A stretch of DNA of 32,000 nucleotides. It comes from Promethearchaeota archaeon (lineage in GTDB: Archaea; Asgardarchaeota; Thorarchaeia; Thorarchaeales; Thorarchaeaceae). Of the stretch, positions 26,759 to 32,000 are shown one piece after another. The first letter of the stretch is position 1. Every line of letters starts with the position of its first letter. The stretch covers positions 1-32,000 of the forward strand of contig JALVPN010000077.1 of the NCBI GenBank assembly GCA_027031765.1, in the 5' to 3' direction. The translations under genes and the position numbers were made by a program. The notes beneath the pieces are model-generated. The model was not told the origin of the DNA and ran no database searches. It saw nothing but the letters and a program-made list of their open reading frames with translations.

Positions 26759-27286
26759 TCACTGCTTCGTCGCGTCAATCATTAGTCGACAGAGCATGGC
26801 GAATGCCTCTTCTACATTCTCTCCTGTCAACGCACTCGACTCAACATAGAGAAAACCATTGGCCTCCGCATACTCCTTGCCCTCGTCGGTTGCGACCACC
26901 CTGCTGTCGGTAAGGTCCACCTTGTTTGCTACGACCACCATCGGTACTTCCCGCCCGATATTGCTGAAACCCTCCTCTTTCCACCGGTCGAGGTTCAGGA
27001 AGGTGCGTCGCCGGGTCACATCAAAGACCAAGAGGCCCCCACGAGCACCCCTATAGAACCCCTGCCTGACGACTTCGAAACGGGGCTGTCCTGCAAGATC
27101 CCAGACTTGGAGCACGACGTTTGCGTCACGGTCGAGCAGTGACACCCTCTTGATTGCAAAGTCGGAGCCAATGGTACGTTTGTAGTCGGCCTCAAAAAAG
27201 TCCTGTGTGAACCGCAGGGTCAGTGCTGTCTTCCCGACCGCGCCGTCCCCAAGCATGACGACCTTGAACCGGTACTCAGCGGGCAT
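26759..27286 (-). CDS. Rab-like small GTPase 2
   Basis: G1 GDGAVGKT, TIGSDF, G3 VWDLAGQ, FYRGA, LLVFDVT, G4 NKVD, G5 ESSAL. Start is ATG 27286 or 27295. Confidence 0.93.
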   Translation of the reverse strand: MPAEYRFKVVMLGDGAVGKTALTLRFTQDFFEADYKRTIGSDFAIKRVSLLDRDANVVLQVWDLAGQPRFEVVRQGFYRGARGGLLVFDVTRRRTFLNLDRWKEEGFSNIGREVPMVVVANKVDLTDSRVVATDEGKEYAEANGFLYVESSALTGENVEEAFAMLCRLMIDATKQ

Positions 27287-27324
27287 GTGACACACATCCT
27301 CGGTGGCTCACGGGTCGCGAGACC

Positions 27325-27569: not shown

Positions 27570-27950
27570 ATGAAGCGACCGGACTACGTGTTACTCGCTG
27601 AGATACTTACCGAGATGAACATGGAGGGTGGCTACACGGCATCTATTCTTGCCAGGGCAGATGGTCTGCTCGTGGCCTCTGCAAAGACCCCATCTGTGGA
27701 CCAGGACATTGTGGCCGCCATGGCCGGGTATGTGTCTGCGACCGTGGAGAGGATGCGGGACGAACTCGCACTCGGGAATGTGCATGACATCACCGTGAGG
27801 TGTTCAGAGGGCAAGGCGGTGTTCAAGAAGGTGCCGGTGACGGGGGAGGACCTGATCCTTGCAGCACTGATGCCAAGGGGGATACGATATCACGCGAGAC
27901 TCCTCGGCAAGACCGCGACAAAGATAGCGAGGATGTTCGGTAAGCAGTAG
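27570..27950 (+). CDS. Roadblock/LC7 (MglB-like) domain protein
   Basis: 126 aa with the pattern helix - SILARADGLLVAS - IVAAMAGYV helix - ITVRCSEGKAVF - LILAAL - terminal helix. Confidence 0.85.
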   Translation: MKRPDYVLLAEILTEMNMEGGYTASILARADGLLVASAKTPSVDQDIVAAMAGYVSATVERMRDELALGNVHDITVRCSEGKAVFKKVPVTGEDLILAALMPRGIRYHARLLGKTATKIARMFGKQ

Positions 27951-28222
27951 GTAGGACGCACAGGTCGTGTCACGGTGGTGTCGTACTTCATCCCCACAGT
28001 GCCACACGGCACCATGCAAGAGGACACTGTGTCTGGACGCGCACCTGCACAGCGCCGTACGACTTCTGGACTACAGTAGACATGGGGACTCTTGGCCAGC
28101 ACCAGCAGGTGGTCACAGGACAGTGGGCCTGACACGGGCAAGGTGAGGGGCCTGTCAAAAGATTCAAGAGAGTAGGTAGCACCACGCCCTTGATGTCACC
28201 TCAATCCTAGGAGTGCAGCTGA

Positions 28223-28546
28223 GTGGCGGAGAACACCGGAACGGCAGACACGGACAATGCGGACGGGGCAATTGAGATACTGTTCTTCAAGTCTGACAGC
28301 TGCCCGTTCTGCCCCCGGGCCGAGGAGGTGATCCGTGAGGTCATCGGGGAGTTCGACCCCGGCGTGTTCAGACTCGTCGTCATCAACGTCTCGGAGAAGC
28401 CGGAGGTCGCAGAGGAGTATGGCGTGTTTGCCCTGCCCACCGTCGTTGTGGGTGGCATGTCAGTGACTGGAGTCCCCGAACCCGAGATGCTGGTAAAGAT
28501 TATTCTCGGTTCAAGACTCTCAAGGAAAAGGAGAACGACCAGATGA
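28223..28546 (+). CDS. Thioredoxin-fold protein with CPFC motif, KaiB-like
   Basis: CPFC, VINVSEKPEVAEEYGVFALPT (cis-Pro motif). GTG start with SD. Its stop overlaps the start of the next gene (ATGA at 28543-28546). Confidence 0.85.
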   Translation: MAENTGTADTDNADGAIEILFFKSDSCPFCPRAEEVIREVIGEFDPGVFRLVVINVSEKPEVAEEYGVFALPTVVVGGMSVTGVPEPEMLVKIILGSRLSRKRRTTR

Positions 28547-29286
28547 GCAAGTTCACAATTGAGCGCGTCAGGACCGGCATCCCCGGTCTGGATGAGCTGA
28601 TTGAGGGCGGGTTCCCCAGAGGGGATACCATCCTTGTCGCAGGAAAGGCAGGCACTGGCAAGAGCATCCTTGCAGTGCAGTTCCTGTACAAGGGGGCAAC
28701 CGAGTACAACGAGCCCGGTGTGCTCGTGACTCTGGAAGAGCCGCCCCACCTGATAAAGAGGAATATGATGAGGTTTGGCATGGACCTCGAGAGACTGGAG
28801 AGGGAGGGACTGCTTGCAATAGTCGACCTGTCACCGTCCAAAGAGAGGACGCCGGTCATGGTCGGGGAGTATCCCAGTTTTGACCTCTCAGGACTGGAGG
28901 CAATAATCCTCAGTCATATCCGACGCATAAAGGCCAAGCGGGTGGTCATTGACACGCTCTCAATAATGGCATACAAGTTCCGGAGCAGGGACATCCTCCG
29001 GGAAGAGTTCTTCAAACTGTGTGCGAGCATTACCGGCGAGGGGTGCACCCTGTTGCTCACCAGCGAGATCCCGGCACAGGACACCGGACTCGGCGTCTTT
29101 GACATTGAGACCTTCCTCGCATCGGGAGTAATCGTCCTGTACAACGAGAAGATCAGCGAAACGTCACGTTCGCGCTCAATTGAAATACTCAAACTGCGCG
29201 GCTCAAAACACAGCTCACGTATCCACTCGATGCGGATAACCGACGAGGGGATCCGTGTATGGCCGGGTGAGATACCCGGACACTGA
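28543..29286 (+). CDS. Single-domain KaiC-like ATPase, resembling the KaiC CI domain
   Basis: RVRTGIPGLDELIEGG, Walker A GKAGTGKS, QFLYKG...EPGVLVTLEE, RVVIDT, IEILKLRG and ITDEGIRVWP. Confidence 0.9.
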   Translation: MSKFTIERVRTGIPGLDELIEGGFPRGDTILVAGKAGTGKSILAVQFLYKGATEYNEPGVLVTLEEPPHLIKRNMMRFGMDLERLEREGLLAIVDLSPSKERTPVMVGEYPSFDLSGLEAIILSHIRRIKAKRVVIDTLSIMAYKFRSRDILREEFFKLCASITGEGCTLLLTSEIPAQDTGLGVFDIETFLASGVIVLYNEKISETSRSRSIEILKLRGSKHSSRIHSMRITDEGIRVWPGEIPGH

Positions 29287-29316: not shown

Positions 29317-30024
29317 ATGAGGCCAGAAGTGAGGACAACAAGCAGGCGCCGCGCACTGACGGCACGGCCCATGATAGACGACCTTGTGAAGTTCGGCCAG
29401 TTGACACAGGTCTCGTACGTGCTTGTTGGCCCGCTGGGTTCCGGCAAGACCACATACGCTGAGGCGTTCATTGCCGAGGGGCTGAAGCAGGGCTTCCCTG
29501 GGGTGTTCGTCACCACGGACGTGTCGCCACGGGTCATAAGGAATGACATGAGCCGCCATGGATGGCCTGTGGAACGGTACGAGCAGTCAGGACAGATGGT
29601 GTTCATTGACGGGTACTCAGAACGGATGGGGGCACCAAAGATGGGCAGTGCCCGCGCCCTGACAAAGGTCGATGACATAAGCGAGCTCGGTATTGTGCTG
29701 TCCGAGGTCCTCGAAGGCCTTGTGGTGGCGCGCGTGGTCGTTGACAGCCTGTCGACCCTGATCCTCCACTCAGCACCCACCACCATGCCACGGGCTGTCC
29801 AGAGGCTGAGTGGCCGCATCACACAGAGCTCGCACAGCATAATGTACATCCTTGAAGAGGGTGTGCACGACGACAAGGTGTACGCTACATTCTCGTATCT
29901 CATGGACGCTGTGCTCAGGTTCCGACTCGTCGAACGTGAGGGACAGACAGTCCACCAGGTGCGGATGGAGCGGATGCGTGGCACAGAGGCCTCACGTGAG
30001 TGGCACGACTTTGTGCTCGAATGA
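29317..30024 (+). CDS. Second single-domain KaiC/RAD55-like ATPase, degenerate catalytic EE
   Basis: Walker A GPLGSGKT, VFVTTDVS (no EE), RVVVDSLS, FSYLMDAV and ERMRG. Confidence 0.85.
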   Translation: MRPEVRTTSRRRALTARPMIDDLVKFGQLTQVSYVLVGPLGSGKTTYAEAFIAEGLKQGFPGVFVTTDVSPRVIRNDMSRHGWPVERYEQSGQMVFIDGYSERMGAPKMGSARALTKVDDISELGIVLSEVLEGLVVARVVVDSLSTLILHSAPTTMPRAVQRLSGRITQSSHSIMYILEEGVHDDKVYATFSYLMDAVLRFRLVEREGQTVHQVRMERMRGTEASREWHDFVLE

Positions 30025-30187: not shown

Positions 30188-32000
30188 TTGAGGAAACTGA
30201 TTGTCGCGACATTACGGGAGATACTCTGTGCATCAATGTCACTCGATGATGGACTGTCAGCAATCCAGAACATATCCATAGGGCACACGGAGGAGTCGGA
30301 CATCCCATATGACATTGCAAGGGCAATAGAGGAGATACTCCTCCGTAGACCGGGACTGGCAAGTGCCAAGTTGATGGAGTTGACAGTACGCCTCTCCTCG
30401 GACCCGGACCGGACGCTCCCAAAGATGTTGATGCTCCTTGACACGAGGTCCAACACTGCATATAGGAGGGGCGAGTGCGAGATACTGCCAGATATCCAAG
30501 CCCTACCACAGCTGCTGGACATCCTTGGCGAGCTGTCCAGCGCAGTCATGGACGGGCTGTCCCTGAACCTCAGACCACTGATCCCGTTCCTTGCAGACGA
30601 GATGCTCATGACGCTGACATCCATAGTCGACCGGGGACACCCCGCGTCGACGCGGCTTGCAGTCAGGGAGACCCACCACCTCGCGAGCATCCTAGTAGAC
30701 AGGGGCTTCTACGAGTGTGCGGAGCTGCTCTTGGAGGCGCTCGTACGGGTCGCGGCCGAGGTGCAGGACGAGAGGCTCTACTTTGAGGTCGCCATCGACC
30801 ATGCCGTCGTACTGACCGAGACCGGTCTCTACAAGCAGGCACGGACTATCCTCGAAGACCTTGAGAGGAGGGTCAAGGAGAACAGTGACGTGGCCGCACA
30901 GGCGGCAGTGGCCCTGCAGATTGCAGTGAACGAGACCCGTGATGACACTGTGGACCATACCACTGCAAGGGCGTCTGCGGACAGGGCGGTCGAGCTGCAC
31001 CGGCTGGCAGTGGAACAGGGGCGCATGGCGCCTGACGAACTGGCCGTTGCCGAGCTGACGGTGGGGGTGAACATCTTGGCCAACGGCTGGCGGGAGGCCG
31101 TCCCACAGGCAATGGAGCGTCTGGAGGCCGGGCTTGCGGTCTACGAGGAGATGGACTCGCTCACCCAAAGACAGGCCTCCCACTGTTTCAAGGTCCTGGC
31201 CGGACTGGGGTTTGCGCACGGCCTGCTGAGTGACCACGACAATGTGACTCTGAGCATCAGGTACCTGAGACGTGCTGAGGCACTGTTGAGGGAGTCTGTG
31301 AAACCAGAGGAGGACATCACAGAGAAGATTGCTGCATGTGAACACTGCATTGGCTGGGTGTGTCTGTGTTCGGAGTCCGACGAACACTGGGAGCTGGGCA
31401 TCGACGCCTTCAGAAAGGCCACCGAGTTGCGTCGTGCCCTTGTCGGTGAGGGGCGGCTGTCATGGCTCGCCCTACTCGGTAGCGAGCTTGGCCATGCACT
31501 GTCGTTGATACGGACTGCAGGAAGGATGGACGAAGGGCTCCAAGAACGCCTCGTAAGGATTATGCACCAGTATACCCTGTTGTTCCCGACCGATCTGCGG
31601 GCCTTCGAAGAGGCTGCCATTGCTACCTACAACATTGTGTGGCTAGCCTCACGACATGGGGCGGAGCTGTCACAGGAGTTGCTCCGACTCCTTGAGGACA
31701 TAGACAGGATGTTGACCGATGCGACGCCTGTGGAGGACTCTGTCTTCGTGCGCGGGATCTCCCTACTGATGCCATACCTGAAGTCGGACTGGAGAGCACT
31801 GCGGTACAGGGCCGAGGCCCTGCTCCATGCTGGCGGCCCACTCAGGGACGTGGTACTGCTGATGAGCACGCTGGCAAAGATGCGCATCGCTCTAGACTAC
31901 ATGACCCTAGAGAGCATCACGCAGGTGATAACGGGTCATGACGGACAACTGGACGGCACCGACGAGCTAATGGCGAGGTACTGGGACGGACAGGTCGTAC
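30188..32000 (+). CDS. Large alpha-helical TPR-like/solenoid protein, 3'-truncated by the window end (not in the ORF track)
   Basis: My translation from TTG 30188 (alternative ATG 30236) shows no stop for 604 codons to the window end. It contains helical repeats such as RGFYECAELLLEAL, TGLYKQARTILEDL and AIRY-like SIRYLRRAEALL. Confidence 0.85.
   Translation, partial: MRKLIVATLREILCASMSLDDGLSAIQNISIGHTEESDIPYDIARAIEEILLRRPGLASAKLMELTVRLSSDPDRTLPKMLMLLDTRSNTAYRRGECEILPDIQALPQLLDILGELSSAVMDGLSLNLRPLIPFLADEMLMTLTSIVDRGHPASTRLAVRETHHLASILVDRGFYECAELLLEALVRVAAEVQDERLYFEVAIDHAVVLTETGLYKQARTILEDLERRVKENSDVAAQAAVALQIAVNETRDDTVDHTTARASADRAVELHRLAVEQGRMAPDELAVAELTVGVNILANGWREAVPQAMERLEAGLAVYEEMDSLTQRQASHCFKVLAGLGFAHGLLSDHDNVTLSIRYLRRAEALLRESVKPEEDITEKIAACEHCIGWVCLCSESDEHWELGIDAFRKATELRRALVGEGRLSWLALLGSELGHALSLIRTAGRMDEGLQERLVRIMHQYTLLFPTDLRAFEEAAIATYNIVWLASRHGAELSQELLRLLEDIDRMLTDATPVEDSVFVRGISLLMPYLKSDWRALRYRAEALLHAGGPLRDVVLLMSTLAKMRIALDYMTLESITQVITGHDGQLDGTDELMARYWDGQVV

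Follow-up and report, generated by a model that had tools for sequence, protein, structure and literature searches.

KaiB is a metamorphic protein with a beta-alpha-beta-beta-alpha-alpha-beta ground-state fold, and it is in its fold-switched form that it binds clock KaiC, at the site also bound by the thioredoxin-like domain of SasA. Thioredoxins can themselves bind signalling proteins through their active-site face, as in the thioredoxin-ASK1 and thioredoxin-TXNIP pairs, where the redox state of the CxxC motif decides binding and where ASK1 releases thioredoxin upon oxidation. In most archaea, several KaiC-like ATPases are encoded whose function is unknown. In clock KaiC, the B-loop comprises residues 116-123 (PMC12084410), among which F122 and D123 are required for the binding of KaiB and SasA (bioRxiv 10.1101/2020.06.17.158394). 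Species with a single-domain KaiC of about 250 amino acids have been reported without a KaiB homolog (PMC5520375) and, in the literature that was searched, KaiB outside cyanobacteria is described only with full-length KaiC (PMC5520375), the 2017 survey of archaeal KaiC neighbourhoods lying outside that scope. This work concerns a small thioredoxin-fold protein (hereafter Trx, for thioredoxin) encoded directly ahead of a single-domain KaiC-like ATPase (KaiC1) in a stretch of 32,000 nucleotides, hereafter the window, from an Asgard archaeon of the family Thorarchaeaceae, class Thorarchaeia (assembly GCA_027031765.1, contig JALVPN010000077.1, positions 1 to 32,000).

On balance, we lean towards a reading of Trx as a dedicated thioredoxin-fold subunit of KaiC1 and of the KaiC-like protein encoded next to it (KaiC2), docking on the B-loop of KaiC1 and modulated by redox, with an output that may feed a GTPase switch. 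In mechanistic terms, Trx would be made together with the CI-like KaiC1 and its catalytically degenerate partner KaiC2, and would serve both. Its active-site face, composed of the CxxC and the cis-proline loop, would most likely dock on the exposed B-loop of KaiC1, which corresponds to the place where fold-switched KaiB and SasA bind clock KaiC. The redox state of the CxxC would probably change this binding, and hence ATPase output, because the motif is under selection and lies inside the predicted interface; since it is selected and no partner cysteine is conserved, the redox state of Trx itself is suggested as the modulator. Such redox gating of the KaiC ATPase would resemble that of the thioredoxin-ASK1 and thioredoxin-TXNIP pairs, from which the present system differs in that the partner families are unrelated and the KaiC partner has no conserved cysteine, the likeness being one of analogy only. 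The output of the module may in turn feed a switch made of a Rab-like GTPase and a Roadblock protein, because the cassette is conserved with both of their genes. Trx, which has retained its redox site, would probably partner a CI-type KaiC in the manner of KaiB and SasA.

The association of Trx with KaiC1 was indeed constant wherever it could be followed. In the family, 29 loci were fetched from other genomes, and every one of them contains a Rab-like gene on the opposite strand, then Roadblock, Trx and KaiC1, with KaiC2 next where the locus extends, and six wider loci display the same gene order, which brings the loci with Roadblock-Trx-KaiC1 to 35 out of 35. Both ends of the junction between Trx and KaiC1 were readable in 33 loci: in 26 of these, the stop of Trx and the start of KaiC1 overlap by 1-20 nt, and in the remaining seven they lie 0-10 nt apart; the gap between Roadblock and Trx amounts to 15-116 nt in most loci. 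In an order-level relative (genome G108), the five-gene core Rab-Roadblock-Trx-KaiC1-KaiC2 is retained, with 46% identity for Trx and 65% for KaiC1, in the midst of outer flanks that are unrecognisable and with the Rab gene inverted onto the same strand as the cassette. Across the 76 genomes of the family, Trx and KaiC1 are found or missing together, except in contig-end cases, a co-occurrence which their adjacency makes non-independent. The adjacency of Trx and KaiC1 is not due to chance. A preliminary description of this DNA had proposed translational coupling on the basis of an ATGA overlap, which is present in the window, and had considered that the gene pair might not be conserved; the coupling is borne out, and conservation extends to the order-level relative.

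Trx itself is well conserved within a narrow range of organisms. A large protein search retrieved 67 relatives (52-70% identity), nearly all from Thorarchaeota where named. Among 301 genomes of the phylum, orthologs (E < 1e-30) were found in approximately 65 of the 76 genomes of the family and in the one sampled genome (1/1) of a second family of the same order, the best matches elsewhere in the phylum reaching approximately 30-40% identity. The CxxC is kept in 66 of the 67 homologs, as CAFC in 58 of them, and CPFC occurs only in the window copy; C27 is conserved in at least 90% of homologs, and the invariant residues are F22, K23, S24, F29, C30, P31, A33, E35, P60, A70, P72, T73, G83 and P85. 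The open reading frame (ORF) begins with a GTG codon, immediately 3' of an in-frame TGA. The CPFC motif announced in the preliminary description is present at residues 27-30, and the peptide quoted there corresponds to residues 32-73.

KaiC1 has the features expected of a partner with a CI-type docking site. The neighbouring gene had already been described as encoding a KaiC-like ATPase, in agreement with a Pfam KaiC (PF06745) score of 242.6 bits. Compared with clock KaiC, it scores 181 bits against CI, with visibly about half of the residues identical, and 82 bits against CII, and it thus resembles the CI domain. Its 34 orthologs, 80-89% identical to the window copy, show a mean column identity of 87%, and the CI-type features (Walker A, EE pair, arginine finger and the Phe-Asp of the B-loop) are present in KaiC1 and invariant in all of them. 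Residues F113-D114 align with F122-D123 of clock KaiC, in a segment, E109-L118, which is nearly or fully invariant and in which three residues, EYP, are inserted with respect to clock KaiC. KaiC2 keeps the Walker A motif and the arginine finger in its 28 orthologs, where a conserved T-D replaces the EE pair, and it probably binds nucleotide without hydrolysing it. Unlike in clock KaiC, the partner would be a single-domain KaiC1 plus a separate degenerate KaiC2, rather than a CI-CII fusion. We also considered KaiC as a disulfide substrate of Trx and rejected it: only 44% of the KaiC1 orthologs keep one of its two cysteines and 59% the other, and 24 of the 28 KaiC2 orthologs are cysteine-free, as is the window copy, so that neither KaiC appears to be a likely disulfide substrate.

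The complex of KaiC1 with Trx (residues 14-107) was modelled with its own alignments, KaiC1-Trx being the pairing covered. The interface score derived from aligned errors (ipSAE) was 0.75 in three runs, and 0.00 in all three controls; 58 of 80 solved complexes attain this mark, as do 2 of 110 mismatched pairs, counts which are approximate because own alignments were used. The three runs had at least 96% of contacts in common, with a partner predicted local distance difference test (pLDDT) of at least 84. The predicted interface joins KaiC1 residues 94-124 (plus 146) to Trx residues 22-33 (including C27-P28-F29), 56-73 (including the cis-proline loop) and 75-93. The lowest-error contacts are predicted between KaiC1 113-118 and Trx 70-73, and Trx residues 26-29 fall within the interface. 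The modelling of a complex with the KaiC-like product, which the preliminary description had proposed and which was run here as KaiC1 plus Trx, therefore predicts docking on a CI-type B-loop, and the model treats the pair like a KaiB-CI or SasA-CI pair. Trx resembles KaiB in being a small beta-alpha-beta-alpha-beta-beta-alpha protein of approximately 85 residues encoded beside KaiC, and in its predicted position on a CI B-loop which, in KaiC1, keeps the Phe-Asp pair.

Several points weigh against this reading. The binding of Trx to KaiC1 is predicted only, and the high score may reflect memory of the solved KaiB-CI and SasA-CI complexes (5JWO, 5JWR and 6X61). Mean column entropy is 0.35 bits in the predicted Trx interface vs 1.07 bits in the rest of the fold, but this conservation is non-discriminating, as in any thioredoxin the active-site face is conserved above all other surfaces. 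As no KaiC cysteine is conserved, there is no visible disulfide target among the sequences compared. A region of about 10 kb is syntenic as a whole within the family, with some gain and loss of WD40 and HEAT genes, so that the adjacency count owes much to shared ancestry and no more than three or four cases are independent. Finally, the sequencing runs listed for the stretch comprise one hydrothermal-vent metagenome DNA run, which probably represents the sample of origin, and no RNA run.

Thioredoxin-fold genes, with or without cysteines, adjoin KaiC genes in three other lineages. In one Asgard family (labelled f18; genome G025), a single row of genes comprises a Trx-like gene lacking CxxC, one for a CAFC thioredoxin, one like KaiC1 (43% identity) and one like KaiC2 with DUF7504. 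In another (f5), a double-domain KaiC of 456 amino acids is followed, after 10 nt, by a CSWC thioredoxin of 85-87 amino acids (L067:30-1668 +; L069:1471-3115 -), which scores 37 bits with Pfam Thioredoxin and 30 bits with Pfam KaiB, above the KaiB cut-off. Neither the f18 locus, which has no Rab gene, nor the f5 loci contain a Ras or Roadblock gene. The 120 KaiC1 homologs listed were nearly all labelled Thorarchaeota and were uninformative on distant relatives; among 1.8 billion representatives, the nearest relative from outside Thorarchaeia was a double-domain KaiC, P0189 (43% identity). Its start is overlapped by a cysteine-less gene of 92 residues, the best Pfam match of which is KaiB (17.7 bits) and which aligns with the Trx profile of Thorarchaeia with an hhalign probability of 81% (E 1e-5); a V4R gene and a DUF7504-type KaiC lie directly upstream of it. 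The loop motif FDLSGL was present in 4 of 4 KaiCs with a thioredoxin-fold neighbour and in 0 of 3 without (P0301, P0229 and a KaiC on contig C144 of the window's genome), a small sample. A search with the cysteine-less partner P0338 gave one relative only.

Trx could also be an ordinary housekeeping disulfide reductase of the thioredoxin/glutaredoxin-like type, whose operon with KaiC was inherited and which makes no specific contact with KaiC. Its family affiliation is compatible with such a role. Pfam ranked Thioredoxin_3 (PF13192) first (36.6 bits, above the cut-off of 24.8) and a glutaredoxin-like (Glrx-like) family second (26.6 bits), and NCBIfam ranked first the MJ0307 family, TIGR00411 (55.7 bits, E 4e-15). 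Among PDB sequences, Trx came closest to the MJ0307 thioredoxin 1FO5 (E 5e-14), ahead of protein disulfide oxidoreductases from archaea and Aquifex and of 1NHO, all of them redox-active proteins, and a profile of 68 family members gave 66.5 bits (E 1.5e-17) against 1FO5. Trx agrees with MJ0307 and MTH807 (1FO5 and 1NHO) in size, fold, CxxC and cis-proline, both redox elements being intact, and all the 50 best Foldseek matches of its model were thioredoxins or thioredoxin-fold redox proteins. The synteny over about 10 kb would also be expected of an inherited operon. Nevertheless, the TIGR00411 equivalog cut-off of 92.75 bits is far from reached, which indicates a relative of MJ0307 rather than an equivalog. 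Unlike MJ0307 and MTH807, Trx belongs to a distinct clade confined to one archaeal order, with invariant motifs of its own and coupled to a KaiC gene. Moreover, other contigs of the same genome encode a canonical thioredoxin reductase (contig C28; 354 bits, above the cut-off), as well as three thioredoxins of the canonical kind (contigs C84 and C3; 80, 74 and 66 bits), so that Trx is an additional paralog and not the cell's only thioredoxin. The conserved stop-start overlap with KaiC1, the persistence of the five-gene core at order level despite changed flanks, the three other arrangements with KaiC and the passing of a controlled complex model also argue against a housekeeping role, which we consider unlikely. 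Separately, a 576-amino-acid ORF on another contig (C188, L003:37-1767 +) of the same genome gives a weak thioredoxin-like match (E 1e-4).

Alternatively, the partner of Trx may lie elsewhere than in a B-loop. Trx would then be a redox enzyme or sensor for the Rab-like GTPase, for Roadblock or for the large helical protein encoded downstream of KaiC2, or else a chaperone of KaiC1/KaiC2 ring assembly, and not a KaiB-like regulator. The Rab-like GTPase is an ortholog of the crystallised Thor-Rab (PDB 7EZB/7EZD/7EZE; E 8.7e-89, 299 bits), and the locus is reminiscent of MglA/MglB-type GTPase-Roadblock switches and of Thor-Rab (7EZB), in that the Rab ortholog adjoins and a Roadblock gene precedes Trx. 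The structural study of Thor-Rab, Roadblock and TRAPPC3 (PMC10933270) contains neither the word thioredoxin nor the word KaiC. Orthologs of the helical protein (41-51% identity) lie 3' of KaiC2 in the five family loci, out of five, that reach that far; no Pfam family matched this protein, and no ortholog of it was found in the order-level relative. In other Asgard families, thioredoxins are fused to two V4R domains beside Ras-like GTPase genes, and tandem small thioredoxin genes follow a Ras gene, in line with a GTPase-related role. A tree of 33 rows grouped the Trx clade of Thorarchaeia with the thioredoxin domains of V4R fusions and of PAS-thioredoxin-kinase proteins, and true Asgard KaiB with the thioredoxins of f5 and of another family, f16; its long branches, weak resolution and lack of a classical thioredoxin outgroup make it weak evidence. 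Against such partners, the tightest and most conserved junction is that with KaiC1, compared with a wider gap to Roadblock in most loci, and f18 and f5 pair a thioredoxin with KaiC in the absence of Ras or Roadblock. We judge this explanation to be as improbable as a housekeeping role.

The relationship of Trx with KaiB deserves to be considered in the light of these data. The preliminary description had presented the protein as a relative of KaiB, intermediate between thioredoxin and KaiB, and this is not supported by the profiles or by the ranking of PDB matches. Pfam KaiB (PF07689) scored 24.9 bits over residues 33-75, under its gathering cut-off of 27 and under the score of Thioredoxin_3, while the NCBIfam KaiB models (TIGR02654 and NF006798) gave 20.2-20.4 bits, for cut-offs of 145 and 110. 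The KaiB likeness announced there is thus real but weak. Thioredoxin_3 matched 68 of 68 aligned family members, with a best E-value better than that of KaiB; orthologs in 17 of the 76 family genomes just passed the Pfam KaiB cut-off (27-29 bits). KaiB was not among the best 60 PDB sequence matches of Trx, and with the profile of 68 members KaiB (1WWJ) ranked 54th, at 22.5 bits. The KaiB model also found sub-threshold matches in four genomes with no match above the KaiB cut-off (M. jannaschii, M. acetivorans, T. thermophilus and L. lactis), so that KaiB and small thioredoxins cross-match in part generically, and the weak match of Trx would largely be of this kind. By family, the protein is best classed as a small thioredoxin of the MJ0307 type, and not as KaiB: unlike KaiB, it has the CxxC and every part of the thioredoxin signature, and its profile scores are those of a thioredoxin. 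True Asgard KaiB stood apart from Trx in the tree, small and weakly resolved as it is; together with the rank of KaiB in the profile search, this gives no support to a specific sister relationship between Trx and KaiB, which we had considered.

Structural comparison brought Trx closer to KaiB than its sequence does. The AlphaFold2 model, for which the family alignment served as input (pLDDT 82.6), shows the thioredoxin topology in its minimal form, beta-alpha-beta-alpha-beta-beta-alpha, flanked by disordered tails, and no other topology was output, although a single-state prediction remains compatible with a second fold such as the KaiB ground state. By VIA-align, fold-switched KaiB from KaiB-CI complexes matched this model with Z 12.9 (5JWR_D; root-mean-square deviation 1.9 A, 82 residues aligned) and Z 12.7 (5JWO_B; the two chains spanning 1.8-1.9 A at 22% identity), level with the best true thioredoxins (Z 13.3-12.0), and the SasA N-domain with Z 11.9. 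As modelled, the structure of Trx would therefore be no further from active KaiB than from any thioredoxin, because it is without the N-terminal extension of classical thioredoxins. In a broader scenario, which we regard as quite doubtful, the Asgard thioredoxin-fold partners of KaiC would form one family, ranging from CxxC forms (Thorarchaeia, f18 and f5) to cysteine-less KaiB-like forms; the contact of cyanobacterial KaiB and SasA with the B-loop would derive from an older thioredoxin-KaiC pairing, and in Thorarchaeia the CxxC would gate KaiC1 binding and so couple redox to Rab/Roadblock. As to Trx being a true KaiB ortholog in a KaiBC-type timer, with fold switching and phosphorylation cycles, the near-threshold KaiB scores, the match to fold-switched KaiB and the CI-like B-loop speak in its favour, but the window copy lies under the KaiB cut-offs, the family profile prefers MJ0307, true Asgard KaiB sits elsewhere in the tree, there is no CII-type domain, KaiC2 has no catalytic EE pair and AlphaFold2 yields only the thioredoxin topology, which makes this very improbable. 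Indeed, unlike the cyanobacterial Kai clock, the module of Thorarchaeia includes no KaiA and, known as it is from genes and a model, gives no sign of fold switching or of a phosphorylation cycle.

A subunit role for Trx on KaiC1 and KaiC2, as preferred here, offers perspectives which rest on genomics and on one structural model. A conserved, co-translated thioredoxin at the predicted KaiB/SasA site would provide a single-domain KaiC with a concrete, testable partner and with a plausible redox input. The module also bears on the origin of KaiB from the thioredoxin fold, and its location beside Thor-Rab and Roadblock opens a route to the inputs of Asgard small-GTPase signalling. The coordinates of the elements discussed are collected in Table 1.

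Table 1. Trx, its partner ATPases and the adjoining genes: positions in the window.
Feature	Position	Strand	Basis or description
Trx ORF, 107 amino acids	28223..28546	+	acidic disordered N-tail, beta-alpha-beta-alpha-beta-beta-alpha core at residues 17-103, basic C-tail
GGAG, possible ribosome-binding site 9 nt 5' of the Trx GTG	28210..28213	+	sequence reading
CPFC redox motif (C27 and C30), residues 27-30	28301..28312	+	sequence reading
LPT, cis-proline loop of the thioredoxin fold, residues 71-73	28433..28441	+	sequence reading
ATGA stop/start overlap, Trx to KaiC1	28543..28546	+	sequence reading
KaiC1, single-domain CI-like KaiC ATPase, 247 amino acids	28543..29286	+	Walker A GKAGTGKS, catalytic EE 65-66, Walker B, KLRG finger
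B-loop-like segment of KaiC1, residues 94-124, with invariant YPSFDLS	28822..28914	+	alignment to KaiC CI
KaiC2, diverged single-domain KaiC-like protein, 30 nt 3' of KaiC1	29317..30024	+	Pfam KaiC 107 bits and DUF7504
Rab-like small GTPase, divergent from the Roadblock gene	26759..27295	-	Pfam Ras 168.9 bits
Roadblock/LC7 gene upstream of Trx	27570..27950	+	Pfam Robl_LC7 28.2 bits; position conserved in all related loci
Large helical protein, >604 amino acids, running past the window end	30188..31999	+	ORF, downstream of KaiC2

Beside the Rab gene, a HEAT-like gene (24151-25365) and a WD40 gene (25507-26742) are variably present in the family: out of five wider loci, three had no detectable HEAT gene and one had no WD40 gene, the Rab-Roadblock-Trx-KaiC core being constant. 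The double-domain KaiC nearest to KaiC1 outside Thorarchaeia comes last in a metagenomic cluster (L053:54-3185 +; L054:2-3142 +), after a DUF7504-type KaiC, a V4R gene and a cysteine-less Trx/KaiB-like gene of 76-92 amino acids, the end of which overlaps its start. Other thioredoxin-fold and KaiC genes were encountered during the survey. True KaiB genes were found in two Asgard genomes of family f9 (60.7 and 82.6 bits; L062:16-1740 -, L061:1465-1752 -), one directly 5' of a full-length double-domain KaiC and the other beside a response regulator gene. Family f16 has loci in which two or three small thioredoxin-like genes stand in tandem after a gene for a Ras-like GTPase (L051:3517-4243 -, L052:2632-3686 +); the last of them keeps CGPC, the others being without both cysteines and having KaiB as their best, sub-threshold Pfam match. 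Genomes of the same family (L063-L066, e.g., L063:1405-1692 -) encode CLFC thioredoxins of 94-97 amino acids, with KaiB as the top Pfam match (34.9 bits, above the cut-off) just ahead of Thioredoxin (34.0 bits) and with no KaiC gene within 1.5 kb. Proteins of approximately 500 residues with an N-terminal CxxC thioredoxin and two V4R domains occur in other Asgard families (L044:1227-2729 -, L047:620-2119 -, L045:1047-2495 -), with a Ras-like GTPase gene nearby in two of the three loci, and family f27 possesses PAS-thioredoxin(CxxC)-histidine kinase proteins (L042:1478-3511 +, L043:1233-3236 -), a domain order that recalls SasA.

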